A DNA stretch of 56,501 nt, the filler included, from Sluysia triapertura (lineage: Eukaryota): NCBI GenBank assembly GCA_046118255.1. It is 4 parts of 4 records of this genome, joined end to end, with 100 filler letters (N's around TTAATTAATTAA, not from the genome) between each part and the next. Parts side by side here need not be neighbours in the genome. Positions count along the whole stretch, not along the records: positions 1 to 13,782 come from JBJNIA010020404.1; positions 13,883 to 29,626 come from JBJNIA010220356.1; positions 29,727 to 44,211 come from JBJNIA010257184.1; 1 more part is not named here. One strand, 5' to 3'. The notes under the pieces were generated by a model. It ran no database searches, was not told the origin of the DNA, and worked only from the letters and a program-made list of their open reading frames with translations. Position 1 is the first letter of the stretch; the number at the start of each line of letters is the position of its first letter. Positions 5,601-48,789 of this stretch are shown one piece after another. A program made the translations under genes and the position numbers.

Positions 5601-5954
5601 CTATTTTGTTGCACTTCCACAGAACTAATGCTACCTGTCATTCAATTCATTTCTAAGGCTTTTAAACGTTGCTTTAATTAAATTAAAGCTGATTTTTGAC
5701 TTTCAATTATTTGTTCGTGACGATAACCACGTTTGCTGTGGAAAGCTGATGATGATTATGATTGAATGATAGTTATTTTTAAAATTTAAATTTAAATTAT
5801 TTTTAACTTTATAAAATTTAAGATTAGCTTTTATTAAAAATTCTTTGTAAAATTTTTTAGTTCCACAATAATTATCATATCTTCTCTAAACAAAAATTCA
5901 AAATAAAAACATAAAAATTTATTTTTGAAAAAATTTAATTTTGATATTTGACTG

Positions 5955-6790
5955 CTATGTATGATACTTCTTCTCGACGTTCCACCTACTAATAAATAAA
6001 AGTAATAATAATAATGATAATGATAAGTAATAATAATAATAAATAAAAGTAACGTTGTCGTCTGTTAAATTATTGCCGCCTGAAATGTTAGAAACGCTTG
6101 CAATATTATTTAGTAAATCTGTAATTCGTAGCAAGTGTAAATCGTAAGTTGCTTGATCTTGTTGTTCAACTTCAACTCTTGAATAGAATGAGTGTATCTG
6201 CAATACACTTCACGCATTAAGCAGATATCTTTATTATCAGTAAGAGCTGGACACGTACGAGTAAATTCTCTTTTATTTAACATACAATACTCATGCTCAT
6301 TATCTCTACGTCGAGAGTCATTAAATCTATAATTATTAAGAGGACAAAAATACTCTATCATTGTTATGCTTTTTATTAATCCTAGGTTTATTTTTATCAA
6401 TGTAATAAAAATTATTATCATTAAGAAAATTAATTACAATTAGTTTATAATAATAAAGTTCGAAAACATGTTTATAATTTTTATAAATACTAAAAAAATC
6501 GACTTTGTATTGTTTAAGTTTATAACATTTATCTTCATAGCAGCTAAAGAAACCATCGTGTTCTTCATTGTTGTTGACATGATAATCGATATATTTCTTC
6601 TTCTCAGTTTGCGTAACTTCATATCCAACATTGTTATCTTTATTATCATTAGGGTTATCATTGTTAGACTAGCAATACTCAACTTCAACATTAATAACTT
6701 TGACATTGTCATCTACAAGATTGTTATTTTGTAAATCGTTATCTCTTCTAATGCCAATTTTGTTATACTGATCTTCAAAATTATATGCTC
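5955..6790 (-). pseudogene. Degenerate CCCH zinc-finger gene, copy 1 of the element-borne family
   Basis: An N/D-rich acidic frame with one internal stop is followed by CPALTDNKDICLMREVYCRYTH (6188-6253, C-x9-C-x6-C-x3-H). After a frameshift it continues HLLRITDLLNNI, matching HLFRLENLLKSI of ORF 27256. Confidence 0.7.
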
Positions 6791-6824
6791 TAAAGTTTTC
6801 AAAAATTTGTGAAATAGATTGTTC

Positions 6825-8938
6825 AATGATTGGCCATCCAACCAGAGGCGTTATAAAGGAAACAATAGTGAAACTTATTCAGATTGGATGACCAATATAA
6901 ATGCATAAAAGAGATACAGAATGGTTGATGTGTAAACCACTATCAGTGGTAACAACGATTAGAAATTAATTTTAATGATATAGCCACTGATGGTGGTAGT
7001 TACTGAATAATTTATTAGTTTAATTGAAAATAAAAATAATAAATGGTCATAATAATAACAAAATGTTATTATTATTATTAAACACATAAAGTTTTTCGTC
7101 TTTATTAAACATGATCTTTCTATATTTCTTTTTACCTTCTGAACATATGAAAATCTTAAAACTTAAAGTACACTTATTCTTTTACAATGTAAAAATGAAA
7201 TATAAAATGTTTTAAGTGAATATATGTTATAGTCTGGCTTTTAATATGTTCAAAAGGTGATTATACGATGTTGAGGTGTGATTTATTTTCTTGATATGTT
7301 TGTAAATAGTGATGTCACCATGTGTTGTTAAGACTCAAATGATGTAGATCATGAATTCAGAGTGTTTGGAAAGATTTGAAAGTGTATAATAATTAATTTC
7401 GAACGTGGTTGTGATTGAATTGTATTGAGATAAAAGACAAAATACTTTAGATGAATTTTAAATGTAATTTAATGGTTTAGAATGTTATGAGATTATGTGT
7501 TTAGTTGATTTTAACGATGAAGAGTGAATTGATGTAAAAGAGATAATTATGAGAGTGTTAAAATGTTTAAGAGTGTACAGAATAAAATTAAATAAAATTG
7601 TTTCTAAATTTTTATTCCGTAAATAATTTTTAATTTTTATTTGTAAATTTGTAAAAAGTTTATTTTCAATTTCTAATAATTAAAATCTTTTTAATTAATT
7701 CTATAAATAGAGATTTTTAATATTTTAATTTTATATTTTAATCTTATAGACATATAAAAGAATTATATTTTAATTTCATATTTTATGGACACATAAAAGA
7801 ATTTATATGATTATTTATGCAAATTTAATGATATCAAAAATAATAAAATGATTATAAAATTTTTCTTTCATCAAAATAATTATCATATATAAAGAGATCA
7901 TTTTTGTGGAAATTTAATAAGCAACATTATTAAAAGTTAATTGCAAGGAAGATCTCGTTGGAATCTTTTAGTACAAATTCGATCGTTGGATACTGATGTA
8001 AAGTTATTGATGTAAAATAATTGGTATTTTATAATCTGAAGATTATCAATTTTGGAGCTTAATCGAACGATTCATTCCTTTATCGAGAAATTAAAATTTG
8101 GACATATCGAATTGTTAGTAAATGTAAGTTGATAATTATTAAGTTTTCACATAAATAATTATTGTGTCAAAATCATACTCAAAATCTTGTAAACATATCG
8201 CCAAGTATCATACCTGGCTCAATTAAACTTTTAAAATCTGAAAAATAAATAAAGCTTAAACTCTTTATTTTTAAAGTATTATTTCATCACATTATATGTC
8301 ATTTTTTGCATATTGTTCGTATTATTATTCGATTTTATAATAAAATTTGGTGTTTTGTAATTTTTCCTTTGATTAAAGTGTAGTATAAAGAGGTGTAAAA
8401 TTAATAAGAATAGTACTAAGACTTGGAGTATAAATTTTCTTTTTTAATTAAATATATTAAGAATTTAAATAAGGCTGTTGAGTTAGTTTTGCGTCAAAGA
8501 TATCGAGTTAATAGTAATTTTAAATATACTTAGTAAAAGTTTACAGAAAGGAATAAAGTAAAAATTAATTACTGCATTGAAAAAATTCTGATTGTAAGAC
8601 ACTGAGCCTTTCGATATTGTAAGGAGCGTTAATTTATTTTCACATTTTATCTGTAGTTGCGTCCTCGGCCAGACGTAAAGCTCAATATACAGACGAACCC
8701 GTCCATTTAAAAATCATAATTGTTAGTTTTTATACAGAAAAGGCTAACAAGAGTATGGTTTTATGTTGATTTAATTTAACGTTGTTTTCTGTTGATTTTT
8801 GAATGTGAATTGTAGATTTTGGAAGAAATTGTTATATTGAGTAAAACTTATGTAAAAAGAATGTTTTGGTAAGTGTTTTATGAATATGTTATATAAATTT
8901 TTAATAAAATTTATTAAGAAAATAGGTTGGCCAGCACA
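6825..8938 (-). repeat. Terminal module 1 (left-pointing): terminus TGTGCTGGCCAACCT at 8938, interrupted at about 7600-8760
   Basis: 8760-8938 is the reverse-complement homolog of 16454-16680. 7220-7500 is the reverse-complement homolog of 16800-17095. Palindrome ACCACTATCAGTGGT at 6936-6950. ATTGGATGACCAAT at 6883-6896. Confidence 0.75.
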
Positions 8939-11204
8939 AACAGTATGAAATGAAACTTCGATATATAAAATTTGATGAAGATTTTCATTTAAAAATTGCT
9001 GTGGTTTTTATTATTATTATTAACCTAGGCGAAATAACTGCAGTACGCAATTTACGAAACAAAATAGGCGTATCTGTAACTATAAGTGAACAATTTCAAC
9101 GTGTAATTTAATTATCAATTGCCTACTCTAATTTGTAAGTTGCTTAATCTTAAATTGAAAGTCTAATCTTATGTTAATGCTTTAACAATTTGTGTTTTAA
9201 TTCGTTAATAATCTTGTGTTGTGTCTTTATACTTTTACTTTAACTTTACTAAATTATAACCCTAATTAAACAAATTCCGAATATCGATATATCTTTTAAA
9301 ATAGCACAATTATACAATGAAAATTCTTTTATAATAATACACTTCTATTACATAAATAGAACTAATAATTCCTTTAACAAAAATGCCTTCAATAAATATA
9401 ACTTTAATATTTACTTTAAAATAATAAAAATATTATTAAATCATTACCAGGGTTGACACAAATCACGCAAAGTAAATATTGACGCCCATATTAACTAAAA
9501 TATAATGAATAAAAAACAAGTTACTTATATGTTTATTTTAGTTGATTGCTAAAGAATAAGCTTCAATTTCACCGTTTTCTACAGATGAATTGAAGCAGCG
9601 TCACTAAAGCTAAAAAGGTTTCGGTTTCTTTATTATCTTTGCCTACTCCTGTCTTGTGATTTTCTGCAAAATTAAATTAAAATTTAATATAAATATTATA
9701 TTGTTATTGTATTGTAACATAATATTCAACTTTTCAATTTTAATTTTTTAATTTTTTTAATTTTCAAAATTTCAAATTAAATTTAATGTTTAATTTAAAA
9801 AATAAAATTATTTCAAAGTAAAATTAAAATCATTATCATTAAGTTTATGATGCTTTATATCAATTTAAAATGAGATCTAATAGAGTTAGTATAAATTTAA
9901 AATTTAATAACAATTTAATAATAAAATTTAATAATAATTTAGTAACTAGTTTTATATTGAAATTAAACAAATTTTCATTTTAAAATGAGATTCTATAAAG
10001 ACTATATGACATTAAATTTTAAGAACATAGAAAACTATTCTAATATGGGAGTTAAAATTATATTAAATTGAGATTGAGTAAAACTAGTATACTTGTTAAT
10101 AAAATTAATAACATTATTCTCGATCAAAATTAACTTTAACTAAAGAAATATTGAGAGAATAATGTTATATCAAAATTAAAATGATTATAATCGAGAAAAG
10201 TCATATTAAAATAAGATTGAATATAAAGTATATGTAATCGTAATTTAATAAAACATAAATATTTAGGCTGAGAGCAATATTTATCATTATTATTTACTAC
10301 TTATTATTATGCTATTATGATTATTATTATTCATTACTTAATTAACGAAATTATTTACTGTACTATTACTCTTCATTACTTACTATGTTACTTATTAACG
10401 AAATTATTTATTGTATTTGTATTATTATTTATTACTTGCAATTTTAATACTGAATGAAATTATTATTTATAAACAATGATTAAAAATTAAATAATTAAAT
10501 AATTAAATAATAGAATGTATATAAATATCACTTACAAATATTTTGCAAAACACAATTATTAGTTATTATACACAGTATTACGCAGAGTTACCGATACATA
10601 AAGTAGTAAAAGGAGAATAATGCTGAATATTTCATAGAAAATTCATCATTGATATTACGAAATTAAAAGAAGATTTGAAGATATCGATAGAATCAATTGT
10701 TAATATTTCGAAATTAAGGGCACAATTTACAGTTAAATATCTAAGTTTTAATTTCAAGATTCAAATCAAAAATAATTATAATTATTGCTGTTTAAGTAAG
10801 TGATATTTATTGTACTCCCAGCTTAAAATTATAATATTTAAAATTATCATAAACATATATTTTAATATTATTACTCCTTTTTTGTACAGAGCATTTAATT
10901 AATAAATTTTTGTATTTAAATTTTTTTGTTCTGAGAGTAGTGCCCCAAAGAAAGAAAGTAACATAAAATCATAATCAAAGAATACTAGTTTTGACTAAAA
11001 TTAAAATTAACAATCTTTGTAAAATAAATTGAATTCATCCTAAAATAAAATAAAAACTTACTTTTGCGTTTCCATTCCAGGTTATCGGAATGAGTATCCG
11101 AGTTCAGGTGAAATAAATTTAAAGCATAAAAACTATAAAACGACGCTAAATAGTTGATACGATAAAAAAATCGTTAAGAGACTTTAAGCTATGGGTGTCA
11201 GAAG

Positions 11205-12709
11205 TTATTTATATGTTTTATTGTTATTTGAATAATATTTTGTGATTAATAATGATTTTGAGGGCGTTATATTGGAAGAGGTCACAGGATGGCGTTTATG
11301 TTTGAAATATGAAAATTTATATTGAATTTTATTGATCATTTGAACTTTAAATTTATAAGCTGTAAAAGTAAGACTAATAAAGTCATAATTGTTTTTTAAT
11401 TGAATTGATTTAATTTTAAAAGAAAAAGAATTCATAGCTGGTTATCATATTAGACCTTAATTCTAGATTAATAGTTTTAAAATATCTTTGACTATCAGTT
11501 TTGCAAATTTTAGATTCATAATGGTTAATATTTAAGTTATAATTTAAAACATTAAAATTTAGTCTCGAAAAACAACAATATTTACTATTTATTAACATAT
11601 TAAACGATGTAACTATATTAAGTATAAATTTTGATTTCAATAATTGTTTTCGATAGTCTCCGTCGTTCTGGATCTTGGCTTGTTTAAATTCTGAAATTAT
11701 AAAGTCATTATTGAAATAGTATATATATAAATGATAAATTATAAGATCAAGAAGTTGTGAATTAAAATTATTAACCGTGAATTTTTGGCGGCTACCACGT
11801 CCACGTATAGACAAATAAAACAAATTAATCAAACGATATCTTTCTGCGCTAGTAGGAAGTCCCATCATATTCTTGTTAAATGTAATAAAGCTTTGCATGC
11901 CAAGTTGTGCTCTCATCATTTCCGCAACATCTAAGAACCTGACGTCTAATACGTTGTCTTCTCTTATGACAGAACGTCTTGAAATCGTTTCGTGGTTATT
12001 CAATAATATGGCCTGAAAATGAAGGTGTTCATTTATATCAGATCGCATAACCAGATAGTGCTGGATTGCCACTTTTTTTATCAAATTGGTTATATTTAAA
12101 TATTTCAAAATTTATCATCTTTATATCATCATTATTTAAAATAATAAAAACAGAAAAACTAAATTCATCTTTAATTGATTGTAACACATAATGGATTCTT
12201 AAAAATTTCATCATTATATCATTGATATTTAAAGATACTAAGCTAAATATAGAGTTCTCATACGTATGAAGAAATAACAATAAATGTAGTTGTACTAACT
12301 TTTCTTTTTCTGAATCAGTCGACTGATTAGGATTATCAGAAATAGAGTCATGATGGATACATATAACACTGCGTATATTGGTCATATCCTCAAATTTAAT
12401 AATCACTTTATGTTGACTTAAACTTTTGTTATTGAATGGGTAACTTGATTTTAATTGTATATCCGATGGTAAATTTGGAGCATTTATCTTCAATGAGTTA
12501 TCTACAATAAACCGGTTGGAAACATATACCCAATTTTCTTTTACGTTGGAAACTATCAAATGCTTAACATGTTGTAAATGAGCGTCAGTTTTAGACGTAC
12601 TAAATTTATTTCCACTATACGAATTCAAATTACCATAAGCTGCTACGGAATTGTTTCGAACAACATCACTAAAGTAATTCATATTTGATACAGATTGAAA
12701 AAACTTCAA
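11205..12709 (-). pseudogene. Frameshifted lineage-specific ORF 'X' (three overlapping ORF pieces), function unknown
   Basis: Consecutive minus-strand ORFs 12709-12038, 12108-11416 and 11435-11205 lie directly downstream of module 2. They share peptides with 22480-23290 (YFKTxxLxL, NRFI/NQRFI) and 18967-19251 (K[YF]CxFxxLxF). Confidence 0.6.
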
Positions 12710-12904
12710 AAGATCGAGCTATGCCAAGTTTTGTTTTGGTTTATTTTATTTTTTATTGCAGCTAAATTGATCTCGAATTTACCACTATGATTTTTGTTAA
12801 AAGTTTTATTAATACTTAAAATTAAATTGTGATAAAGTTGCCAAAACTCATTTTAATTGTTAAAAATTTTCTGTCTGCTGCAATTGTGTGCAGATCAATA
12901 GAAA

Positions 12905-13782
12905 TTAGTTATTGGATTGAGCAAATGTGCGTGTACTATTTTTAGTACAATATAGTCTGCCTTGCTATTGTCTAGAATGCCCAATCAGAGTATATTTACT
13001 ATAATGACGGCAATCTGGACTCTGATTGGGTAATCACATAATTCGTAAACTTTTGGATTATACACCATCATCAGTAGTGATTTGTAATTTACGTAATTAA
13101 ATGAGGTGTCACAACTGATGATGGTGACAACAAATTTTAATCTGCCTCAAGATTTGAATGAAAATAATTGAAATATTTAATTAAAATAATTAACAATAAT
13201 AATAGTAACAATAATAAAGGATAAAAATAAAGTACATAATAATAATGAATAACATATTAATGATTATAAAACAATAATAACAATATTAGAAATGATGAAT
13301 TATTGTTGTTATTATTGTTATAAGGATAATTTAATACATAAACCCTTCAAAGTCTTTCCATACATGATCTTTTCTGTTTCTGATTTAATTTTCTAACATA
13401 TGGAATGAAGAGAAAAAGAGGAACAAATGGTGTGATAAAGAGAAAGTTAATGAATTGTCTGGAGTTATCTTAGACTCTATTCAAAATGGAAATAATTAAA
13501 TTTATAAGTGAATTGAAGAATGTTGAATTAATTTATTGAACTTATAGAAGGTTTGTGCTTTAAATGAGGTTTTTGTATTAATTGTGTTGATTAAAATGCT
13601 GTTGAAAAAATTGGAGTTATTTTGACTTTAAAAGATGATTGCGAAATAATTCTATATATGCTACAATGTTTTTACAATTGATTGAGGATGATGAGTATGA
13701 TTATATGAAGTAGTTTTAAACTGTTGTTGTTGATTATAGTTTTAGGTGAGATGATCTTTGTTTCTGAAATAGTTAATAACGA
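12905..13782 (-). repeat. Terminal module 2 (left-pointing, truncated by contig end)
   Basis: Perfect 12-bp inverted repeat CCCAATCAGAGT/ACTCTGATTGGG (12980-13030). 17/18 inverted repeat at 13063-13126. Conserved ACATAAA...ACATGATCTTT...AACATATG block as at 7081-7150. G-rich arm. Confidence 0.75.
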
Positions 13783-13882
13783 NNNNNNNNNNNNNNNNNN
13801 NNNNNNNNNNNNNNNNNNNNNNNNNNTTAATTAATTAANNNNNNNNNNNNNNNNNNNNNNNNNNNNNNNNNNNNNNNNNNNN
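13783..13882. other. Artificial 100-bp contig spacer (N44-TTAATTAATTAA-N44)
   Basis: The identical spacer occurs three times, and the linker gives stops in all six frames. Confidence 0.97.
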
Positions 13883-14199
13883 AACAAATTTTAATTAAAT
13901 TAATTAACAAATGTACTTTAATGTTTTAACAAATTAAACCTTTTACAGGGTTATTTTTTTCGTATCTCTCATCATTTTACTTTGATTAAAATATTCTCTA
14001 TAGTTATCTTGCTACTTCAGTTCATCATAATGCCTCGTCTTAGTTCTTTAATAACATTCTATCAACCCTTATTCTTCACTAATCCCAACAATATACAAAA
14101 CGCGCATATAATATAGCTATGTTCTAAATCGCCTATATAATTTGATTAAGTAATGAAAATATGATGTGATAAGTTATTTTAATTTGAAAAACTCCATTA

Positions 14200-15165: not shown

Positions 15166-17862
15166 TATGTCAGGTTATAAATAGATTAATTTCAATCAAT
15201 TTTAAAATAGTGTTTATGTGTGTTTATTATGTCAAATTGAATATATATTACAAATTATAGATGAACTATGTTTAGTTTAAAAATATATACGAATAATATT
15301 TTAAATCAATAAATTTATAAATAGAATTTTGATTTTGTGTAGTGTTACATTAACTAACGAAAAAACAAATGTCAAGGTCAGGTTAAAAGTAGTATATGAA
15401 GAATAATAATTATATTAGATCACACAGAAAAAATTCAGTAATTTTCTTTATAAATATTTATCAAAGAAGTATTGAAGAAATATATTATAATATTTGTAGA
15501 AAACTTGATTATTACTAAAGAAATATATTGTTGAAAAATATATTCTAATCCTTCGGAGATAATTTGAGATCAACTACTTGTATTCGTTAGTTAATTTTTG
15601 TATAGGTTTTAATTCGTTTTTAAAAGAACAGTAAATTCTACTTAATTTTAATAGTTAATTTAAAGAGATATTTTTAATTATCCAGTAAAAAAACCTTTAA
15701 TATCCCAAAAAGAACTTTATTAGTTATTTAATTTATATTCTGTAGAAACTTAAACTTATTAAATTTTTTATAAAAATAGAAACCGATTTTATCGGTAGTA
15801 AAATCAATTAAAACCGTTTTTAATAAAAAGAACGGTAGTAAATTTATTATCTATTTAAAACTTTTCGAGTAAAATATTATTTCCCTATAAAAATAGTTGC
15901 AATCTACTAAAAATATAATTGCCAATCGATCACTTAAAATAACTATTGACCTCCTTTAACTATCTTTTGTTTGCTACTTAAAACTTAGCCCTTAAGTGTG
16001 TAAGACTAAGATTGTAAGAGACTAACGTGAATTACATTTCACTAAAACCGTTTTAACTTTTTAAACAGAAAACTTTTTATTAAAATTATCCAGTAATTTT
16101 ATTATTTTCGACAATAAGGAAAAACAAATAAATAGACGAAGGTTTATTAAGATCAAAATGATAAAATATACTTTATTAAGAATAATAAAAAATATTAAAT
16201 ATAAAATATTGTTGCTAGAGTCGCTTAAATACTGATAATTCGAAAAACTGCAAACGGATAAAATCAGTCGTTAAGGTACCAAGTGCCTTAAATTTTAATT
16301 CCAATAAACGAATTGAATCTTTAAATTAAGACAAAACGTTGATAATGCTGGAGCAGAACTGGAATAGACTAATAACACTGGAGTAGACAAATAACTGTTA
16401 CTGTTTTCTCTGTTACCAATTTTTGTATATGAGTGTTGGGATTGTCTAGTTAGTGTGGTGACCAACCTATTACATTTAACAAAATTCATTAGAAATTTTC
16501 AGTTAAACATTACAAAGCCAGATTCACTTTCAAAATATACAATATACATTTTCAAAAATTCATTAAAAACATTTTTTACATAATCCTATGTCAGTATAAT
16601 CAAAATCATATGTTTCAATATAACATTCATCCTTAAAATATACAACTCACAATTTTAAATTCACAATTCAATACAAATACGACTAAAATCATAACCTTTT
16701 CAACACCACACCTTTTAGAATTCGTCAAAACCGTTTCTATATCTTATTTCTCTTCAGCTCCACCAAAATCAACCCCAATCTTTCAAAACATTTTAAATCT
16801 ACAATCTCATAACATACAAACCACAATGACATTCAAAACCATCAATTTACATTAAAAAGGTTCATCAAAAATATTTTATGCGTCATTTTTTAACAATCCA
16901 ACTACAACCACATTCGAAATTAACTACCAGACACCTTCAAATTAATTCAAACATTCTAAATTCATGGTCTGTTATCATATAATCCTCAGCAACACAGAAA
17001 GCAATATTACTTAAATATATCAAGAAAATAAATCACATTTTTAACATTGTATAATCACCTTGCGAACATTCCAAAAGCTAGACTATAACTTATCTTCTTT
17101 TCATCCTCGAAACTAGTCTCTTTCAACATATCTTTAACCCACAATCTACTAACATCTAAACATTATTTCATTCATAACATCAATGTATATTTAAAATCCA
17201 TGTAAAATATTTATATCATTTTTAAATACTTAAATCGTAAGTTTCTACATAATAACATTTAACCTTCACACATCATTAAAGATATTTGACTATTTTTAGT
17301 CGATTTAAATATGTTGAGAATAAATAAAAGGGTACAATGAAGATCGTGTTATAATTCAGATAAAATAAAAGGATTTATGTATTTTAGGATAGTAATAATA
17401 ATAATAATAATAACATTCTTTGTTATTATTATTATCACCATTTTTAATTTTTATCATTTTTATCTCAATTTAATTTTGTCTTGTAATTTATTAATTTAGT
17501 AACTACCTCTACAGTGGTGACTGCATTAATTTACACTTACAGTCATTGTCACTGTCATTGACAGTGGTTTGCATGTCAATCAGTTGACTTTTAATCATTA
17601 TTACTGGTTGTCCAACCAGAGTTATTCTCATCACTATTTTTATATTCCTTTGGTTGGACGGCCAATCAAGTTTATTTTTTAATGCAGCCAATCCAGACAC
17701 AGACAGAGAATTTAGTAACACAAAAATTTATTTTCGTAACTCACAAATTTGTTTGATGACTGAAAAATCAATTTAATTGTAGCTCACAAAATTATTATTT
17801 TAATTCAAATTTATTCATAATAAATAAGGCAGTTTTTCATCATTTTATTAAAGTTAAATTAA

Positions 17863-19251
17863 ATGACTCAAAAGAAGTCAATGACAGAAGAATTCAATAA
17901 ATTTGTACAAGCTATATTAACGTATAAAGAAAGTAGAAACTTTCAAGAAATATCGGATTTTATTTATTCATTTAATTGCTGTCCTGACATAGAACCGATA
18001 CTCTTTTATCAGCAACTTAGATGTGCATCTATTATGTTCGTAAAATTTAATATACCCAAGCTGAATTTTGATTATGAATTTGATTATAAATTTTCTTGAA
18101 TACCGGCACGACCTTAGTAATCCCGTTACAAGTATTGGTTACATTAGAATTTGGTTTCGGCACGTTATCCATGAATCAACCTTAAATCGTTATAGTGAAT
18201 CAGTAAAATATAATACGAAATTTTTGAATCGTTTTTATCCTAAGAGTTTATTTCTAAGAGATCTTGAAATGGTTGAAATATTTCACGCATTGTTAAAGTC
18301 GATCAAAGATTTGCATTCCCAGTTAAATACAATATCACCTTTAGTAAATATGTGGTTTAATTCAGATGCGTTAAAATTAGTAGACTTAGATGTGAACAAT
18401 ACCGCTATTGATTCGTTCGAAGTTCTTAATGTCGATGATGAATCAATGAATATGGAATCTATTATAATTAGCGATGATGATGACAATTTTTCTCAAATCA
18501 TACAAATGCAATTCCCAGTTCTAATTCACATTATGACGGAGATGAACGATTACACTGAGAATATACATCACCAAACTATGCGAACGATTATGAAGCTATT
18601 TTACAGAAAGCAAAGAAAATACCTAGAATCATTATGGTAGTTTACATCATTATAAGTTCCAAGACGGCTTGCGATCGGAGAAATGCACAAACGCTATAAA
18701 CGCACCAAATTCGAATGAACTTATCAAAAAGGCATTCTGCCTATTCAATAGCGATCAAAGCGGGATTTGTATCAAGTCCGGGATCTAGTGCCAATATGTC
18801 CACGCAGTCAACCAATTAGTATCTACCTATGTTGAAAACTTATACTATGATGACCATCTTTCTAGAATTGAAAATCTTCTCAGAAGTTTCGGATCGTCAG
18901 CTCAAGGTACGTCAAATAACAATTTATGTTTAGATAAACAAAAAGTAAATAATTTCTGTCATTTTTTTGATGCTACTAAATTCTTTTATTTTTATTCAGA
19001 TAGTGAAATGTGGATCTCAATCAAAGTCATTTTTAAAATATAAAATTGTTACAAATAAATTTTGTGCTTTTTACTCCTTGATCTTTATTGATTATTTTAA
19101 AAGTTCTTATTATCATATAAATTCAAAAAATAGAAGTTTTTTTAAGATATGTAAATTAAATTTAATTCAAAAGTTAAATTTTAACTTAAAGATTACAAAT
19201 GTGAAACAACCACAACACACCATAAAAGTATATAGAATTTTCAGACAGTAG
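17863..19251 (+). pseudogene. Chimeric RUN-domain + CCCH zinc finger + family C-terminus pseudogene (frameshifts, one in-finger stop)
   Basis: VTSIGYIRIWFRHVIHESTLNRY...FLNRFYPKSLFLRD matches the RUN-domain C-terminal blocks. CLFNSDQSGICIKSGI*CQYVH lies at 18738-18803. The downstream HLSRIENLLRSF...DKQKVNNF...EMWISI aligns with ORF 27256. Confidence 0.75.
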
Positions 19252-20181
19252 TTCACAATATTACGATGAATTTTCAGATAATAGTTGACAGATATTTGGT
19301 AAAGTATTGGGGACAGTATTTGATACATTATTTAACACAGTATCTCATACAAATTTTGGACCGCACAGATTATTATTAGTGGAATTCGTTCGAGTATTCT
19401 GAACTTTATTAATTGTATCAAACATTGAAAGTAATTGTAATTATTATTGCATTTCTGTCTGAAAAATTAAAATATTTTATTTTATTAACATTAAAATTTA
19501 TCATTATTAAACTATTTGCTATTTTCTATTTTGTTGTTATTAAGTGTTTATATCTTTGTTGAATAAAATTTCTTGTGATTTCATTGCTTTATTAATTAAT
19601 TGTTAAGTATAAAGAGAGAACCGTAAAGGAAATATAAAACAAAATAGAATAACATAAAATAAAGCAAGACGAAATAATATTTACTCTTATAACAATTAAA
19701 GTCAAAGTTGAGTATCCTCGCAAAAAAAACAAAATAAATAGAACCAAAAAACTTACTTGCGTTTCCATTCCCGGTCATCTGAATTATTATTATTATTAAA
19801 AGTAATAATACGATTTAAATTTAATGTTTGATAGTAAATGTAAGCACAATTAAAGTTAAAAATTCGTAATTTTTATTAAATAAAATAAAAATTTTTATAA
19901 TACAGATTACAAGACTTAAAGAGTTGTAGGATAAGGATAAGATTCAAGTAAATAAAAGTGTATTACAATTTAAACTGATGATAAGTATTTAACTTATGAT
20001 TAAATAAGATTTTTCTTATCAGGTGCTTCTGACATATTAATATATTACTTTTAAATAATTTTTAAATAACAATCAATTGTTGACTTTATTCAACTTTTCA
20101 AATTGTTAATCTAAATCCAGTAATTTTTTAAGCTACTGTTTTTAATTTGTAATTACTAGTTACGCTGTAAAATTAATCATG

Positions 20182-20290
20182 ATTGGGCGCCCAATAATGA
20201 TAATGTAGAAAAATAGCATTGATTGGACGTCCAATCAAACAAAATAATTGCTGATTGTGTTGTGTACATAGTAGTGATTGGATATCCAAT
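20182..20290. promoter_or_regulatory. Three perfect ATTGG-N4-CCAAT palindromes (inverted CCAAT boxes)
   Basis: ATTGGGCGCCCAAT at 20182-20195, TTGATTGGACGTCCAATCAA at 20219-20238, ATTGGATATCCAAT at 20277-20290. Confidence 0.7.
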
Positions 20291-21141
20291 TATATTTGCT
20301 ACTACCTCTCACAATTACAATTGATAGTAACCGTCAGTGATGGCAGTCAATAATCCAAACAAATCTAAAAACTGTCATTGCTGACAATATGCATAGTGGT
20401 AGAAACCACAAAACATGTATTGATAAATAATGTTAATGATTTAAATTAATAATAATAAAATTGAAAAATAATGATAAAAATAAAAAATAATTAATATATA
20501 ATAATAAAAAAATAAGTAATAAAATAATAATAATAAAATTATATAAAAACACATAATAGACCTTGCTTTTCCCTTATTTACATAAAACTCTTCTAAAATT
20601 CCAAAAATAAAATAAAAATGAGAACAATGATAAATAATACGAAGCATAAAAATTCTTTTTAATTTCACATTTAATTTCACAAAAAGGAGAATGCAAAAGA
20701 AATTGATAAAAGAATGTGTAAAGAAACGTGATAACGTGATTAAAAATGTTAAAGAAATTCTATTTTGATTGCAGTGTTTAAAAATGATTTTGAACTGAGA
20801 ATTTAAAGTTTTTCAATGATGTTAATGATTGAGTGTTGAAGAATTGTAAATTTGAAATGTTTTGGATTAACATTAAAATGTACATTTGATAATTTTAGAT
20901 GTAAATTGTGATTTTAATGTTGTGAAATTCTGAATTAAAATGATCAAAAGTATTTAATATTTTAATGAGTCTGAAAAGTAATATGTAAAATGTTAAGAAA
21001 AGTGATATTTAATGTATAATAATGATTTGATTTTTAAATAAAAAGGTTGGCAACCACACATGGAAACTGAAAAATAATTGCAATTCCTTGAATACACTAA
21101 AAAGATAAAGTTTAAAATGGTATCCACATTTCCAATATAGT

Positions 21142-22400
21142 TGTAGCGACCAACCTTAATAACCACTAAAATTTTGTTGTAAATCAACATCTTTTCCTTT
21201 TCATTTCGTTACATCTCAACAGTTATACATTCATCTATTCACAATTCCACAAAATCTAAATCCAAATTATATTAACTAATTCACCAAAAACATTACTCGA
21301 CATTCTCAATAATCCAACAACAAACTCATCCATTTAATACTTTCGAACCCTTTATTTTATACTACACTCTAACAATCAATACCTAATAATTCATAACATT
21401 TATTCAATAGTTTATTTGCTCAAACTAAGTCACAATTATAAACTTATAACACAAAAACCACAACGACATCTAATACCATTCCATAACACCAATAAATCTA
21501 CTCGAAACGCATAAAATACCCAATTCACACCTTCGAATCAATTGCAACGTTTCAAATGCACTATTCATCTATGCATAATCATCATTAATACAAATCTACA
21601 ACACCAAAAACATTAAACAAATTAATTACACAAAACATAGTATACACACCTTAAATATACAAAGAGTTGTATTGCAATTGTTCTTAGATTCATTAAATTA
21701 CAATCTTCTCAATAAACCGTTTATACCCGATATCTCAATACTTAAACCTTATTTTTAATTTTTAACTTCAATCAATATTTAAGAACTTATTCTAACATCC
21801 TCTATTTCATTTTTGACTTAACTCATTTATCATATCTTTAAAAGTTAAATATATTTATCAAATCTTTCAAAACAATCCTTACTCAGAAAGTTAGTTTCAA
21901 ATACATTTTAACTTATTTCAACACGCTAAACCTTTCAAGAATTTAAGCTAAATCTAATACAGTTTTAAAGAATTCAATTTTATACAGTGAGATAACAACG
22001 ATAACTCGAGCATTATACACCCTGTTATCGTTGCTATTTCACTCATTTCCATCAATTTTTATTTAATTTCTTTTGTTACCTTTTATATGTTAAGAACTAA
22101 GAATTAAGAAAGAGAATATCGTTTCTGAAAAAAAGGAAAGTTTATGTGTTATTTTGCTTTTTTTGTTTTAGTAATAATAATAATAATACTGTTGTTATTA
22201 TTGTCAGTCATTAAATTAATTATTATTAAAATTTTTATGCATTTTATAAAGTTGTTACTACTATCACCAGTGTCAACACTGATGATGGCTATTCATATCT
22301 AATTTTGTCTGCACAATTTAATCAATAATTTTTACATGACACCCAATCAGAGCTAATATTGTCTCAAATTCTGTTTGAAAGCTCTGATTCGATGACCAAC
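21142..22400 (+). repeat. Terminal module 5 (right-pointing), terminus TGTAGCGACCAACCT
   Basis: It carries the terminus motif, a C-rich arm, the conserved block at 22085-22150 and a palindrome at 22260-22290. The pair CCAATCAGAGC/GCTCTGATTCG at 22343-22391 is the same as in module 2. Confidence 0.72.
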
Positions 22401-22479
22401 AAAAACACATTAAAAGATAGTAGAATTGTAAAAGTGCTAAAAATGGAAACAATGTAATACACAATTTTTTGGTAACAAG

Positions 22480-23290
22480 CTAAAAACACAAAAAATGAAA
22501 CAGAACAAGATTTACTTAAATTTTAAGTCTCATGATAAATCGTGGCTACATTCAAACAGAAATATACTGTAATAATCGAAATTGGCAACCTAACCAAGTG
22601 ATCCCAACTATCATCTTAAGAAGTTATGAATTATCACATTTAATGTCTCATGTGAATCAACCAACGTTTTATAAATCCCACTCCTGACACCACTCCAAAA
22701 TGAACATAATGTCAGATTCAGAACAATCATCATCAAAACATTAGCAATGATTTTTAAATTACAAAATTCGAAAACGATATCATTAAATCTATTATCGTTA
22801 AGATTACTATTTTAGTCATTAATTTTATATATTCAATGAAAAAATGATGTAAAATATTATGTTGGCACTAAGGCGCTCAAAAGGCATTACTCGACTTAAT
22901 CGTTAACCTAAAATCATTTAATTGGCTAATTAAAGCATAAGGCGAAGATAAAGTTTCATTAAACATTAAGTTTTCAATTATAAAGAATATTAATCAAGTT
23001 GATATTAAATCAATTGGTATTACTATCTCTTCATGATCGTCGTATATAGACTTCAAAACTGTACTCTTTAATTTTGTATTTATAACGCAATCAAACATTT
23101 ATTAAATAGTGTTTATTCCCTCAATTAATACTTTTAAAATATCACACTTTAAAGTTTAGAGTTTATTTTAAAACCCTTCAATTGAAGTTGAATCAATAAA
23201 TTATGTGATAAATCAATATCTTTTAAATTCGTTAAGTCATAAAATGCAGTTAAACTTAATTTTACTTTCACATAAATTGAAAATAACTCG
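22480..23290 (+). pseudogene. Heavily decayed copy of ORF 'X'
   Basis: The fragments NYHLKKL*IITFNV..NQRFI, NIMLALRRSKGITRL, SIRRR and VYFKTLQLKL are collinear with DAHLQHVKHLIVSNV..SNRFI, KNMMGLPTSAERYRL, SIRGR and RYFKTINLEL of 12709-11416. Confidence 0.5.
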
Positions 23291-24979
23291 ATATTGTTAA
23301 TATTAAAAAAATATACTTAATACTTGATATAAGAAATTTTTTGTCATAATAATACATTCAGACCATTCAATGTTATATTATTGAGTTAAGATTTACTCAA
23401 CAATATCTAAAAAACTGTGCATGATCAAAAGACGTAAAATATACAATATCTTTCCTAATTTGATGTGAAATAATAGAACAATTTATGAGAAAAGTAATTG
23501 TAAATAACTGCAATTATTTAGAATTATTTTTAAACAATTTATATGAAAAGCAGTAAAATAATCATTGTAAATAGTTGTAATTATAAATAATTATTTTTAT
23601 GAAACTAAACTGAAAATTATTGAATAAATAAAATAATTTGATAATCATTGAAAATGATAATAGCACCAATTATTGTTTTTTAAAAAAAATTATAATTGTA
23701 GATATAATTACAAAAATTGTTTCATGATAAATAAAATAATAATTATCTAAAAATAGCAACGAGAGAGACAATAAAGTAATTTCAGATACTGATATCTCCA
23801 GATGGAACAAAAAAGGAACCAAGAATCCAGATATAATTTTGTTAATTTCTGTGAAATCCTCTGGCAGATTTACTTAGGATAAACAAGATATTAAGTAAGG
23901 TATTTGTGTACAACTTATCGTTGTCTCGCTTGTAGTAATAATAAACTAATTAGTATTGTTTAATTACTTCACATAATAGGATCCGAATAACACAAGTTAG
24001 TTAAATAAAACTAGTTGAAATAAGGATTTAGTAGATCACATTAATATCGTACAGTACAATTATAGAACTACTTAACTTTAGATCCTATCTGCTTGTTTCT
24101 TCCTAGGAAGTGTGAAATAAAACGAGAAATTAAAGCAAGTTATTCGAAAATGAAAATAAAACATCTTTTACCAACTCCAATGACATCAGAATTACATTCT
24201 TAAATAATGCCATTCGTCAACTTCATTTTCGAATACCTCTAAAGTTTTTAAATTGATTTTAATATTAAAATCATTATGATTCATCATTTTGATAAATAAA
24301 TTTGATTTTATCTAAGATAATTTAACAAAATTATTTAATCCGTTTTCTTCGATACGCTCGGATAATTAATAATTACATTATTATATATTATGTAAGTAGC
24401 AATATGTACGGAAATAATATTTTCTTGCTTAATGAGAACCAAATTTAATAATACAAATTAACAGTAGACTATAATTTATGATAATCTAAAATTCATCATT
24501 AATATTATTAAGTAAAAAATATCTTTAATTTTGAAATAATGATACCATGGTGACGATAACTTATATTTTAGAAAGAAATAATCAAGTTGATAAGTGTTTT
24601 TTACTAAATGAAAATAAAGATAATTTTATTTATACTATTTATTAGCGCTAATAAATTCATAAAATTAAATTTAGTTCTTGAGTGTTTATTTTATTACGGA
24701 TATTTGCACTAATAAAAGTGATGTTAATGATGGTTGAAGAGTAATAAAAATGAAAATTCAAGATAAGTGAAGATTTAATGAAGATGTAGTTATAGACATG
24801 ACATGAAATCGTGAAGGTGATTTATGGTCATTGTAAATATTAATATACAATTTATATGTATACATTCGAAATACAAAATGAATTCAATTTAATATTCTAT
24901 TAAATTTCAAAAATTTAAAATTCAAATTCAAAATTGCTTTTGCAAGCAGAAAGCAAAATATTATAAGCAAAACGTAAAT

Positions 24980-25750
24980 CATAAGATCTCAAGTAAGGTT
25001 TAGGGATCACCCAACCATTCTGATTTATTGTTTGTAAAACTCTTTCTTCAACATAAAATTCGAGCTTATAACATTGTTGAAAATCTTATAAATTTGCACC
25101 AAAGACATCCTGGCAAGTGTCCGTCCCAAATGAATGATTTTAAAGTCTACTCATTGATTTGTGATAATAAAGATCCAATTAAGTTCATTCGGTCTAACAG
25201 AAATAATGTTAGTTATCGTTGTTATTTTTCTAGAACAGTTTTCTGCGCATTCTTCCTATGGATATCATAGAATCTTGTGAACGTCATTTCATAAGCACGG
25301 AAAAGTTTAATGATAATGTGTCATCGTATTTAAAAAATCGACTTATTTTACAAGTTTAAAGCTATATAATTTATCCCTTGCATTTTGAATTCGATTAAAA
25401 AGGATTTATAAAAATGGTTCGTATAGTTTAATCTTTATGGGGTTGATCAAACTAATAATTTTGCTTATACTCGAATATGATTATAACTGAATAAACAATA
25501 TAAACAGTGACAGAATAAATTCAAAGCATTGAAACTTTAAAAGTAATTAATATAGTTTAATTTATAATTTATCGACGTATCTAAACCGTTGAAAAAACGT
25601 ATATATAAAGTTTAAGTAATAATGTTAATCTTATATTAAATCAGACAAAAACATATAAATTGGAACTAATGTTATCAATATTAAAATTCAAAAGTATCGA
25701 ATATGACAATTTAGGAAATAAAATTGATGAATTAGTATCCAGAAAGTTCG
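24980..25750 (+). pseudogene. Possible further decayed copy of ORF 'X'
   Basis: LQHKIRAYNIVENLINLHQR resembles LQHVKHLIVSNVKENWVYVSNR. The remainder is only weakly alignable by eye. Confidence 0.3.
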
Positions 25751-25893
25751 ATTACAAAGTGAAGATTATATTTGTAAGACAAAATTGTGAGATAACAATT
25801 AATATATATATATATAGATTCTTTTTTAATTAACCAATAACTACAAGTCCTCTTTATTTACGAATTAAAGTCTAGAGTATAAAGCCTACTAAA

Positions 25894-25904
25894 ATTATTA
25901 TTAC

Positions 25905-25951
<47 letters not shown>
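25894..25951. repeat. (ATT)n microsatellite
   Basis: Direct reading. Confidence 0.95.
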
Positions 25952-26299
25952 GTAAAGACGTTAGTTTTTTTCTTTATTTTATTTTCGTTTTTAGATCCTG
26001 ACATTGTTATTATTATAATTACTTTATTTATCAATATCATTGTTATTATTGTACTTGTTACATTAATTGATATTATTGTAACTGTAATCAAAATAAATGC
26101 AAAATATGATATTATGGAATATGTGCATCAGTCCCAAAGATTAAAAAAGGAATCTCAAACAACATCTAATGTAAAAGAATTAATTTCTTATTAGTCAAGC
26201 AAGAGTATAATTCAAAATTATGATGGTAATTGCTAAATGCTTACATTATGAAATTACGTACATTTCTTGGAGATTAACATTTGGAAACCGGGGATGACA

Positions 26300-27200
26300 A
26301 CACAACATATCACACTCACCTTCAAAATCTACAATCCACAATTTTAAATTCATCATGAACACCTTCTTACATAGTTCAATATTAACATAACCAAAATTAT
26401 ATCTTTATTCAACATCACACAATTACCTTTTAGAATGTGCCAAACATAGTCTATATTTATCTTCTTCACTTTCACTCAACCACACTCTTTTTAATGCATT
26501 TTAAAGTCACAACCTACCAACAACCTACTTTCATTCAAAACATTTACATTTATAATCCATTTTATATATTCATATTATTTCAAAATATTTAAATCATAGG
26601 CTTTCAACGATTGAACTCATCTTCAGCCAAAAACACTTACTGGTATTTAAAATTACATTTAAAACGTTTTACGAATTATCTTATAACACTAGAATCACAA
26701 CTACACCGTAAAATTTCATTGCAACAACATACGTTCATCATATCCTGACATTTAACCGCAGACATCTTAAGACAATTAACTTTTAAGAAACTAGATTTAA
26801 TATGTCCAGAAATAAACTAAACAAAGTAAGATCGTGTAAGAATTCAAAGAATTTATGTAGTTATAACATTGTGTTATTATTATTATTATCATTTTTATTA
26901 TTACCATTTTATTTTTATCAATTTTAATTTAACTTCGTTATTTAATCAGTGATTACCACTATCAATGGTGACACTGTTAGTTGCCATGTGTGAATTCTTG
27001 TCACCATTGATGGTGGTTGACTTTTCAACATAAAAATAATTTGTATTATTACTGGTTCTCTTCATTATTTTTATATCTACGGTTGGACAGCCAATCCAGT
27101 CACAGTACAAAAATACAATTTTTATTTGGCTCTTATTGATTGAATAAAAATGTATAACTACAATTTTAAAAATACCTAATAAAACTAGCCAATAGTAATT
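26300..27200 (+). repeat. Terminal module 6 (right-pointing, outer terminus missing)
   Basis: 26320-26520 aligns with 16630-16810. Conserved block at 26800-26865, palindromes at 26945-27020, GTTGGACAGCCAAT at 27082-27095. Confidence 0.72.
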
Positions 27201-27255
27201 AGTCATAATTAAAGGTAGTTAATCGTTAATTGTCTGTGATTTTCATTTATTATAA

Positions 27256-27810
27256 TTGAATATGAATGGTGATGAATGTAGAGAAGATCCTCTTCTGATA
27301 AAATTGAAGAAACGGTACGATTTGGAGATTAAGGTTGACGGTGAGCTATTTCACGAGTTTCAGTCACTGCGGCTTAAGGTTGATGAATTAAGCAATAATG
27401 ATAGTCATAAATATTCCAATAGTATATTAATTTCGAGTCAATATATTAGATCGGCACTTTGCCCATGTAGCAGTAACCCAAATGGTACTTGCACGAAATT
27501 CGGAATCAAGTGTCCATACGCGCACACAGTTAGCCAAATAGTAAATCTTAAGACCGAAGATGTATATCACGTAGGTCACCTCTTCAGACTTGAGAATCTT
27601 CTCAAAAGTATTAGAATATCAACATTAGAAACATCGGACAACATTGTATTCATGGATAATCATAAAGTATATAATTTCTATCCTGACATAAATGATAATT
27701 TAATTTTTGTTTTTAATTTAGATGATGAAACGTGGGCTTCGATAAATGACATATATAAGACTAAATTTGCGAATTTTAAAATTTTTATGAATAAATCTGC
27801 GTCTCTTTAA
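27256..27810 (+). CDS. Intact single-exon CCCH zinc-finger protein (Unkempt-like finger spacing), copy 3 of the element-borne family; ATG at 27262
   Basis: 184-aa open frame containing CPCSSNPNGTCTKFGIKCPYAH (27460-27525). It begins about 70 bp after the last CCAAT box of module 6. Confidence 0.65.
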   Translation: MNMNGDECREDPLLIKLKKRYDLEIKVDGELFHEFQSLRLKVDELSNNDSHKYSNSILISSQYIRSALCPCSSNPNGTCTKFGIKCPYAHTVSQIVNLKTEDVYHVGHLFRLENLLKSIRISTLETSDNIVFMDNHKVYNFYPDINDNLIFVFNLDDETWASINDIYKTKFANFKIFMNKSASL

Positions 27811-28444
27811 CGTCTTAAATATTATTTATAATTTTAAAAATTTTTCACCTCATATATATTTAGAATGTAAAAATTTAATACGATTTTGTAAAAGAATTAA
27901 CCGAATATTATCTATAAAGTTATTTTCCAATTTAAACAATATCATAACACAACAGTTATTAATTGATTTATAGATATAAGGATATGGTGCAGTTTATGTA
28001 GAGGTCCTGATTGTGTATTGTGATCTTTTTAACTTGTAATGTGTTATATGCTGATCTATACAATTAAATTGCATGTTTAGTTATGAACCACTACAATTGG
28101 CTCCCGGAAATTAGAACTACTAATACCGCACTTCCACTCACAGCTAACTCGCTATAATTCGTAAAACTAATCCCAATATGAAATAACAATTACATATTTG
28201 GATTAGTTACATATTGATATTTTAATGTTACTATTTTTAGCAAAAGAAAATAAATAATTTCATTACTACTTAGATAAAGTATTCTAAAAGTAATATATGA
28301 TGTTATTACAATTAGAAAGAATGAACTTATTACATACAATATGAATAGTTATTGATGTATCAAAATGAACAAACTAATTTTGTGGGTCCCTTAGTAAACA
28401 ATCATTTTCAAATTATTGTAAAATATATTGTTAAATACTCTAAC

Positions 28445-28788
28445 CTTATTGGAGCATTATGTATAATAAAAGCCTCGACAAATTTCACATATTCTCTACT
28501 TTCTGGCAATGAAGGATCTAACACTAAAATGGCGTTGAATAAATTTTTGCCAATTCGACGCATTACACCAGGATAAGACGGTGTTAATAAATCACGGACT
28601 GACTTCGGCCAATTGGAGTAGCGTTTATCTTGCTCCAAATCGTTAATGTATTTGATTGGTGCATATCGAATATCCAATAAAAATTGGGATTTACTTGATC
28701 CAACATTGGATCCATCTACATTGTTGCTACCATCGTTACTGTCTGAAGAAGCATATTGGACTTTTGTTATGGCAGATATTTGATCACT
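28445..28788 (-). pseudogene. UGGT: Isolated exon of UDP-glucose:glycoprotein glucosyltransferase (thioredoxin-like sensor region)
   Basis: Flanked by a TTTTAG acceptor and a GTTAG donor. It reads LDIRYAPIKYINDLEQDKRYSNWPKSVRDLLTPSYPGVMRRIGKNLFNAILVLDP...HNAPIR, matching the UGGT signature DIR..I...NNLE.D.RY..WP.S...LL.P..PG..R.I.KNL.N.....DP. No following exon was found. Confidence 0.85.
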
Positions 28789-29626
28789 CTAAAATTGTAA
28801 GTATAAAAAATGCATTTAAAATATATTTAGTATTCAAAATACCAAAGAAAAATAAACCAGTTTTTTAAATGCAATACGAAAAAGTAATAATGATACAAAC
28901 TTTATAAATAATTTATATTTTTGTTCTATCTTGGTTAACATTTGTTAACATAATAATATGCAAAACAATTGGTTAAGACAACCCTTTAATAAAGTAACAC
29001 TTTTATAAATATTTTATCAACGACTGCTTCATTTTCGAGCTGACTTCCAACAGAGATATTAGAAACATTTTAAAACATAAGAGGAATTTGATTATATTTG
29101 TCTCGTACATGCACCACCAATTGGAATGGACCACAACAATTTAAAAAATATTAACAGATATAACTCAATATTTATGTGGAATGGTAGAAACAGAAGTATT
29201 CTAGCATCATAATTGGAATTACTATCGAAATAATGATAAAACAGTAATCAATAGGTTTCTGTAAAGTAAAAAGTAAACACAAAACAAACAATGAATAATA
29301 ATAGATAACTTTATTATGGTGTGGTGGCGTACACCTGTGATGGCCGGATGATAAAAATAATTAATTTAGGGCTTAAATTTAAAATTGACTTTAATGAAAA
29401 ATAAGACTTAAGGTCTTTTGAATTATTATTATTGTTAAAATTACTTTTACTGAAAAAAATAAATTTCAAATAACAAGTAGAATTAATATATTCGATTAAA
29501 AATCCAACATGGATATAAAAAGTTATATGTACAGCATCATGTAGTATACAGTTCATTAATAGTTTATTAATTGTTAGAAGATCAACAAAATGAAGAAATT
29601 CAAAATAGTTAAAAATAAATAATAAA

Positions 29627-29726
29627 NNNNNNNNNNNNNNNNNNNNNNNNNNNNNNNNNNNNNNNNNNNNTTAATTAATTAANNNNNNNNNNNNNNNNNN
29701 NNNNNNNNNNNNNNNNNNNNNNNNNN
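29627..29726. other. Artificial 100-bp contig spacer
   Basis: N44-TTAATTAATTAA-N44. Confidence 0.97.
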
Positions 29727-29812
29727 TAAATTGATAATGTTGAGTGTGATTGTGATTTAGATGTTGTTAAATTTTAATAAATTTCTAATGATTATGAGTG
29801 TTGGCCACTACA
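29727..29812 (-). repeat. Outer end of another terminal module (TGTAGTGGCCAACAC at 29812)
   Basis: AAATTTTAATAAATTTCTAATG...GTTGGCCACTACA parallels 8895-8938. Confidence 0.55.
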
Positions 29813-48714: not shown

Positions 48715-48789
48715 TACTTTATTAAATTTGGTATTTCACATTTTTACATTCTGTCGTGAATGTAAACGATACACAATTTAAAAACTCAA

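Follow-up and report, generated by a model that had tools for sequence, protein, structure and literature searches.

Transposons that carry genes and multiply are reported to be rare in animals. Among 100 animal genomes, 370 Pack-TIRs were found; only four of these have several copies in a reference genome, and Ssk-FB4 is a further multi-copy case from populations of flies (PMC8277862). Most animal Pack-TIRs come from hAT and Tc1/mariner elements, Ginger being unmentioned in that text, and Ssk-FB4 has terminal inverted repeats (TIRs) of about 700 bp and duplications of 9-10 bp (PMC8277862). Ginger1 and Ginger2-TDD elements are described with TGTNR ends, TIRs of about 40-300 bp, 4-bp duplications and extra domains fused to the transposase (PMC2836005), and transposase loss together with gene capture has been described for GingerRoot (PMC6839031). 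Here we analyse 56,501 nucleotides of the genome of Sluysia triapertura (GCA_046118255.1), four contigs joined end to end and called the window in the following, which harbour a family of arm-like modules with TGT tips.

The window contains homologous dispersed arms with conserved tips, genes specific to the arm type, and one amplified host-like fragment. We read the modules as the ends of a non-autonomous DNA transposon family with Ginger-like TGT ends, unusually long and diverged arms, and a Pack-TIR-like way of working, and we give this reading an even chance. The modules are real, and the family is probably a new form of non-autonomous transposon with gene cargo, its assignment to a class being provisional. 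No description of a matching element was found in the literature searched, the coverage of which excludes subscription journals, supplements and Repbase reports.

Arms, tips and internal blocks

Three gaps, each composed of 44 N, TTAATTAATTAA and 44 N, separate the four contigs. We take TTAATTAATTAA to be a contig-joining linker with stops in six frames, and therefore adjacency across the gaps is unusable as evidence. All contigs but one carry arm modules, and in two places a module is cut by a gap edge. The arms are:

6825..8938, minus strand: arm of subfamily A, tip TGTGCTGGCCAACCT at 8938 (tip motif and alignments), broken by about 1.2 kb of non-arm sequence at about 7540-8740 (approximate limits)
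12885..13782, minus strand: arm, B-type by cargo, cut off at its outer end by the gap at 13783 (middle block and alignments)
16454..17700, plus strand: arm of subfamily A, tip TGTGGTGACCAACCT, left end of the sole complete inverted pair, with an internal duplication whose copies lie about 345 nt apart
20175..21058, minus strand: B-type arm, tip TGTGGTTGCCAACCT (15/18 positions as in 16454), forming the right-hand end of the inverted pair
21142..22400, plus strand: arm, tip TGTAGCGACCAACCT, 83 nt from the end at 21058, followed by low-copy DNA
26289..27103, plus strand: arm of subfamily A, degenerate tip (alignment to 16454)
29727..29812, minus strand: arm stub beyond a gap, tip TGTAGTGGCCAAC, z 6.3 against 16454

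The tip motif TGTRGYKRCCAAC, with at most one mismatch, occurs at five sites, 8938 (-), 16454 (+), 21058 (-), 21142 (+) and 29812 (-), against a shuffle mean of 0.17, and none of 100 shuffles reached five. TGT...CCAAC is the consensus shared by these five ends. The tips at 8938, 16454 and 21058 are alike at 15-16 of 18 positions; the flanks beyond them are without clear similarity, and the base preceding TGT differs among the five tips (T, G, G, T, T). A sequence-only reading of this DNA had proposed a TGT terminus common to all modules. Such a tip is intact in four of six, whereas module 13782 runs into a gap and module 26289 is degenerate, beginning with CGGGGATGACAAC (7-9 of 18 positions alike to the other tips). 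The stub proposed at 29727-29812 was confirmed by its tip motif and its alignment. In contrast, 5955, where the range of that reading starts, is not convincing as a terminus, and the neighbouring 5958 is weak and was rejected as evidence.

The two tips at 21058 and 21142 stand back to back, 83 nt apart, and the spacer (21059-21141) has no other match in the window. Another candidate terminus, at 29320, was rejected as weak; the sequence at 29320-29350 (+), TGTGGTGGCGTACAC, is alike to the five tips at 8-12 of 18 positions and has no arm behind it.

Arms were aligned with a matrix fitted to arm composition and compared with 30 shuffles preserving the local composition gradient. Thirteen of the 15 pairs among the six modules score above all their shuffles; 13782/21058 is not above its shuffles, and 21058/21142 is above them by only 2 points. 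The strongest alignment, 8938/16454, has 502 of 634 positions identical (79%, z 61), 16454/26289 has 267 of 342, and 8938/26289 has 217 of 297, so the likeness goes beyond an AT-rich background. Aligned columns of the A-type arms (8938, 16454, 26289) agree at 78-79%, yet the open reading frames (ORFs) behind them are near saturation at synonymous sites, so these arms look constrained or homogenised. Indels between arms measure 1, 2 and 4 nt, which speaks against hidden coding.

The fixed order of internal blocks described by the sequence-only reading stood in part. Its C-rich and G-poor stretch is present in all six modules, the first 400 nt containing 66-99 C and 16-40 G. The middle block ATATGT..AAGATCRTGT..TTTATGT is exact at 7084, 13336, 17309 and 26800, that is in four of six modules (shuffles 0.00), but it is altered in 21142 and absent from 21058. 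Inverted CCAAT pairs of the form TTGG-N4-CCAA occur at seven sites in the window, all of them within modules (shuffle mean 0.40), although a complete pair is found in only four of six modules. An inverted repeat with a stem of 13-19 bp follows the (AAT)n tract, with a fold z of -2.9 to -5.2 in five of six modules but only -1.85 in 21142. The arm motif AAAAT[CA]TACAA, ATATGT alone and CCAAT alone were not enriched.

No conserved RNA structure is claimed for the hairpin: four pairs have two-sided changes, but 237 of 500 shuffles attain that, and no consensus fold was obtained. No RNA family of Rfam, hammerhead included, came near its gathering score. Occurrences of the three-part arm motif in metagenome (14 loci) and viral contigs (two) were attributed to chance, as none of the 16 has TTGG-N4-CCAA or an upstream C skew above 0.10.

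Five of the six modules had also been said to lead within 250 bp into a same-strand ORF. An ORF of at least 60 aa starts within 250 nt of the inner CCAAT in four of six (background 6.9% of positions), but one of at least 100 aa in only two of six (background 1.7%); the ORF behind 21142 has 51 aa, and behind 21058 there is none of at least 30 aa. Being 4 nt apart, the inverted CCAAT boxes of a pair look more like a single dimer site than two NF-Y boxes, and for this reason the pairs could equally be transposase sites.

Copy number, cargo and host-gene pieces

Contigs of the public run X1 were mapped across 13900-25870 with a likeness of 80%. Each of the 12 bins of 16300-21099 has a summed contig depth within 253-21,151, versus 39-175 in the eight bins of 22700-25870. 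This depth reaches 1,400-21,000 on arm 16454, 580-1,700 on the RUN and CCCH cargo, 250-10,400 from 19500 to 21099, and 7,300-20,400 on arm 21142. Within 22700-25870, one 2.7-kb contig of depth 14 fits with two differences. Since X1 contigs are stacked over the arms as well as over the cargo enclosed by 16454 and 21058, this is a genome-wide repeat and no local segmental duplication. Of the findings that would have refuted the sequence-only reading, neither a likeness limited to AT-rich background nor a purely local duplication was thus observed.

The X1 comparison yielded 1,343 differences, 228 joints and 19,590 pieces, and the details that follow come from 40, 15 and 8 of these, respectively. 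Variant letters occur in 14-18 contigs at five of the cargo sites listed, which lie between 18132 and 18828; at 18132-18592, within the RUN ORF, 15-17 contigs have other letters. Two contigs among the matches listed represent other cargo copies, which differ at 67/505 and 28/262 letters. Among the joints listed, one contig joins 16785 to 20959 on opposite strands, left arm with right arm, and one joins 16922 to 21527; these joints, short-sided and weak alone, hint that other copies mix features of these arms.

Pfam was scanned with 260 peptides, picked by length and composition from the 1,058 window peptides of at least 25 aa. Among these 260, no match to a cognate transposase, integrase, gag or reverse transcriptase was found, and the sole transposase matches belong to a mariner relic (43562-43832). 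The earlier claim of a dispersed, multi-copy and apparently non-autonomous family agrees with this, and with the depth and variant copies in X1.

The cargo comprises:

27262..27810, plus strand: CCCH ORF family, intact, 182 aa, Unkempt-type finger with a C-terminal domain of unknown type
18627..19043, plus strand: CCCH ORF family copy with one in-frame stop, 41% identity over 83 aa, E 3e-15
5958..6349, minus strand: CCCH ORF family copy behind arm 8938, frameshifted (match to the other two copies, finger spacing)
11040..11098, minus strand: EWKRK exon-like piece behind 13782, ending in a gtaagt donor-like site
19750..19790, minus strand: EWKRK exon-like piece behind arm 21058 (alignment to 11040..11098)
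11416..12682, minus strand: two overlapping ORFs of 214 and 210 aa behind arm 13782, without relatives
18074..18640, plus strand: ORF of 188 aa with a PLEKHM1-type RUN fragment at about 18113-18358, multi-copy
28444..28790, minus strand: one UGGT exon, splice sites present on both sides, either cargo or part of a host gene

The three most alike arms (8938, 16454, 26289) lead to a single CCCH-finger ORF family (3/3), and the B-type arms 13782 and 21058 to a common EWKRK exon-like piece (2/2). The cargo had been supposed to be variable, but it is not freely so and is mostly of two fixed types tied to the arm subfamily. What differs is the stretch between the arm and the fixed gene: a RUN fragment behind 16454, two ORFs without relatives behind 13782, and unrelated N-termini elsewhere. 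The low-copy DNA behind arm 21142 carries a decayed leucine-rich-repeat piece; decayed coding pieces of this kind were seen at 22614-23316 (-).

The CCCH finger has the spacing C-x9-C-x6-C-x3-H, like Unkempt finger 3, and the ORF matches Pfam zf-CCCH_UNK at E 1.5e-5, under the curated cut-off; the best PDB match has E 0.14. Both pieces of the copy at 5958..6349 match the other CCCH copies, with 0-6 of 1000 shuffles scoring as high. Between the copies at 27262 and 18627, over 119 codons, the non-synonymous and synonymous differences per site (pN, pS) are 0.32 and 0.69, with pN/pS 0.47 (bootstrap 0.36-0.62) and a dN/dS of 0.22 that is rough, the alignment having been picked on protein similarity and synonymous sites being near saturation. 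These values point to past selection on the predicted protein. No relatives of the ORF were found at E 0.001 among sequences of length 100-319, nor any match in metagenome or viral contigs, and its Atlas matches were all below 0.9. Its single-sequence fold is unusable (predicted local distance difference test, pLDDT, 31.6). Exact look-up gave no match for any of seven window ORFs. A weak match to Unkempt zinc finger 1 was seen at 32951-33049 (-), with E 0.0076, one of 74 peptides, and may be due to chance.

The selection on this ORF, and the presence of the CCCH gene behind just those three arms that resemble each other most, would also be expected of an amplified host CCCH gene family whose conserved long upstream regulatory region was spread by segmental duplication, with no transposition of its own. 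Such a family would not account for the sharp conserved TGT tips, for arms that precede unrelated sequence and are far commoner than the ORF, or for two of three ORF copies being broken, and we regard it as very improbable.

The two EWKRK pieces align with a score of 86, against a shuffle maximum of 50. For the ORFs without relatives behind 13782, the relative search gave one marginal match for 11419-12111 (E 9e-4), with nothing usable in Atlas or PDB, and no significant match for 12041-12682.

The RUN fragment matches Pfam RUN at E 7e-5 and PLEKHM1 at E 0.0014, and was likely captured from a host gene. It is the only good case of capture because it lies inside the inverted pair and is partial, diverged and multi-copy. 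Of the gene-capturing and gene-shuffling family that had been proposed, the amplification of one host-like fragment is retained, whereas the cargo is not freely shuffled.

The window is eukaryotic in content, with a GC of 18-37% per kb, and its genes suggest a host among invertebrate-like animals. It contains an intact calmodulin gene and a PI-PLC X-domain gene of four exons, 55-64% identical to P0001, whose best named relatives are from a snail and beetles (44-51% identity). Introns of this gene, read off the sequence, are as short as 42-43 nt. The UGGT exon is 64% identical over 121 aa to P0010 and ends where the P0010 match ends; no further P0010 exon was found in the window, and a second UGGT exon seen by eye near 29000 was not supported on comparison. 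Because it lies 0.8 kb from the contig end and is conserved as well as the PI-PLC gene, the UGGT exon may be an ordinary host exon with arms in its intron.

Other pieces of host genes were observed. At 37937-38728 (+), a C-rich stretch started by TGTGGTGG is followed by a splice-acceptor-like site and a SETD2 fragment (E 8e-5), which is diverged and no longer has most of the post-SET cysteines; the stretch is possibly a second, shorter arm type, but its likeness to the arms is not significant. At 55457-56501 (-), a frame of at least 347 aa, with its start outside the window, fuses lysyl-tRNA synthetase (LysRS, residues 3-61) to THOC2 (184-320). Two consecutive STIM EF-hand exons lie at 53541-55195 (-), with no SAM-domain exon in the window by motif search, and an isolated, well-conserved lysyl oxidase exon (Pfam E 4e-14) lies at 36820-36969 (-), with no other exon by motif search. 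The in-frame LysRS-THOC2 chimera, the STIM exons and the lysyl oxidase exon have no visible arm. Some host-gene pieces near arms may be ordinary exons of long-intron genes, and should such pieces abound throughout the genome, their association with arms could in part be chance.

Further repeats were seen in the window: a decayed mariner element at 43000-44130 with Transposase_1 matches; a very high copy relic at 13884-15100 (summed depth up to 435,753), which we take to be Tc1-like from motifs near 14100-14900; a tRNA-like sequence without a proper anticodon at 47749-47821 (+), possibly the head of a short interspersed nuclear element; and two small palindromic inserts, by eye like miniature inverted-repeat transposable elements, at 36605-36745 and 48605-48716.

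Pairing of the arms and origin of the family

Arms 16454 and 21058 form one inverted pair of 4.6 kb with both tips on the same contig, inside which the CCCH gene and the EWKRK piece converge. Whether copies pair, inverted or direct, and have target-site duplications had been suggested as a check; this pair is inverted, and no target-site duplication was found. Several observations weigh against the transposon reading. Only this pair has both tips on a single contig, and its arms are only about 72% alike over 318 nt. None of the arms 8938, 13782, 21142 and 26289 is matched by an inverted partner on its contig, and 8938 and 13782 face the same direction. A perfect target-site duplication of 2-10 nt was found in none of eight left/right pairings (best 6/8, across a gap), nor was one of 11-30 nt (none above 52%). 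The flanks of 16454/21058 read TTAG and CATG, with no 4-bp duplication, and a 9-10 nt duplication was likewise not found there; old copies may have lost theirs. No integrase was seen among the peptides scanned, and the window shows no parent gene for the RUN piece. As to copy number, summed contig depth does not equal copy number, X1 shares 0.58 of the window words and may be the source sample, and the bins of 13900-16299 are also high through other repeats, so that depth does not mark the left boundary at 16454. Finally, the order on the G/T strand, CCAAT, CATAAA, a G/T-rich tail and ACA, also suits a long terminal repeat (LTR).

The missing duplications and the many unpaired arms, together with the internal palindromes, the microsatellite and the host-gene pieces scattered through the window, would fit a one-ended rolling-circle element (Helitron2/Helentron-like), in which a fixed promoter-bearing end is kept and a variable far end gathers host DNA. 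We consider this improbable, as the ends are TGT and not TC or CTRR, the base before TGT varies, no Rep or helicase matched among the scanned peptides, and an inverted pair with matching tips exists.

The inner GGTTGG of the arms resembles the reverse complement of the tip CCAACC. Each module could itself be mobile, a small unit whose two ends are imperfect, and pairs of modules could form composite transposons around any sequence between them, as in KolobokP or bacterial composites. The arms do occur in both orientations, one of them adjoins low-copy DNA, and solo units are common in KolobokP (PMC9587614). However, arm type predicts cargo (3/3 and 2/2), unlike in free-standing units, no duplication surrounds any single module, and KolobokP ends are RR..YY; composites are thus a doubtful explanation, with little probability.

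The main rival is an LTR origin, which we hold to be rather unlikely. The modules would be LTRs, solo or 3', of diverged Gypsy-/LARD-type families, transcribed outward on the G/T strand, with CCCH and EWKRK as antisense accessory ORFs beside the 3' LTR. TGT...ACA ends, a length of 0.8-1.3 kb, arms far commoner than cargo, and the order CCAAT boxes, CATAAA, GATCTT and G/T-rich tail (read off the sequence) agree with this, and 16454 and 26289 stop aligning at CCAG[A/T]CACAG, that is at CACA. Plant Retand elements have antisense ORFs beside the 3' LTR (PMC11963269), and the Burro elements of planarians contain host-like domains (PMC6431247). Nevertheless, there is no near-identical direct pair, same-direction neighbours being 66-68% alike while cargo copies elsewhere are 87-89% alike. 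No solo-LTR duplication was found near the inner end in five of five arms (one 4-mer lies 359 nt off), nor an inward CA..TGG primer site in five of five, TGG just outside ACA occurring only in 21058. No purine tract precedes the six TGT ends or, by eye, the inner ends of 16454 and 26289, and gag, reverse transcriptase and integrase gave no match, as stated above.

Under the preferred reading, a transposon family with arms of 0.8-1.3 kb would carry its own CCCH zinc-finger gene, and one subfamily also a RUN fragment. Because the tips are more conserved than the arm interiors, a transposase acting in trans is proposed, and because the tips are of TGTNR form (PMC2836005), an enzyme of integrase type. 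The unit would be mobilised by a Ginger-like DDE transposase that is encoded at another site and recognises the tips. By analogy with Mutator arms, an inward promoter may lie in the inner CCAAT palindromes. If host DNA is copied to a place behind an arm, the CCAAT-rich inner end would drive its expression as a fusion with the element gene, and it would multiply along with the element. RNA binding is predicted for the CCCH protein, which may, speculatively, serve the element, for example against silencing. Most copies in the window are decayed or lack the partner arm.

A bolder version is unlikely: that an undescribed integrase-type lineage with kilobase promoter-bearing arms is a genome-wide gene-shuffling machine of this animal, with a domesticated RNA-binding gene derived from Unkempt that acts against silencing, and the source of the many chimeric pieces of host genes in the window (RUN, SETD2, leucine-rich repeat and LysRS-THOC2).

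If the transposon reading is true, gene capture in an animal would no longer be confined to other classes but include DNA transposons of integrase type, here a multi-copy family that has TGT ends, arms of kilobase length and its own selected RNA-binding gene, and it could be tested directly whether passenger genes aid the survival of a non-autonomous element. If the arms are LTRs, the family would be an ordinary new retroelement family with accessory ORFs.

Comparison with known systems

Helitrons and Helentrons have a TC or T 5' end, a CTRR 3' end and a fixed insertion dinucleotide, features that the tips and flanks found here do not share. Similar to KolobokP, the family has long terminal modules that also occur solo, whereas those of KolobokP are in direct orientation, with RR..YY ends, lengths of 450 or 660 bp, and duplications (PMC9587614). 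Gypsy elements with accessory ORFs, such as Burro and Retand, resemble the family in TG..CA ends, host-like domains and antisense ORFs near the LTR (PMC6431247, PMC11963269); unlike in these, no direct LTR pair, primer site, purine tract, gag or pol was found here.

Similar to Ginger, the tips are TGTNR in four of five cases (8938 reads TGTGC), the host is an animal, and extra domains travel with the element. However, the arms are 0.8-1.3 kb long and alike mainly at the tip, and neither a 4-bp duplication nor a transposase was seen. The family is not filed as Ginger because its arms are too long, target-site duplications are missing, and no integrase was found. GingerRoot and IS3EU are likewise integrase-related DNA transposons that capture gene fragments, often without a DDE gene, and have many unpaired TIRs; they are described mostly with TA..TA ends, TIRs of 100-150 bp and a 6-bp duplication (PMC6839031, PMC10045372), and in TIR length and duplication the arms of the window differ from them.

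The multi-copy host-like fragment between long inverted arms, here RUN between 16454 and 21058, is shared with Pack-TIRs, Ssk-FB4 and Pack-MULEs. In contrast to Pack-TIRs, a family-specific gene that appears to be under purifying selection rides along.

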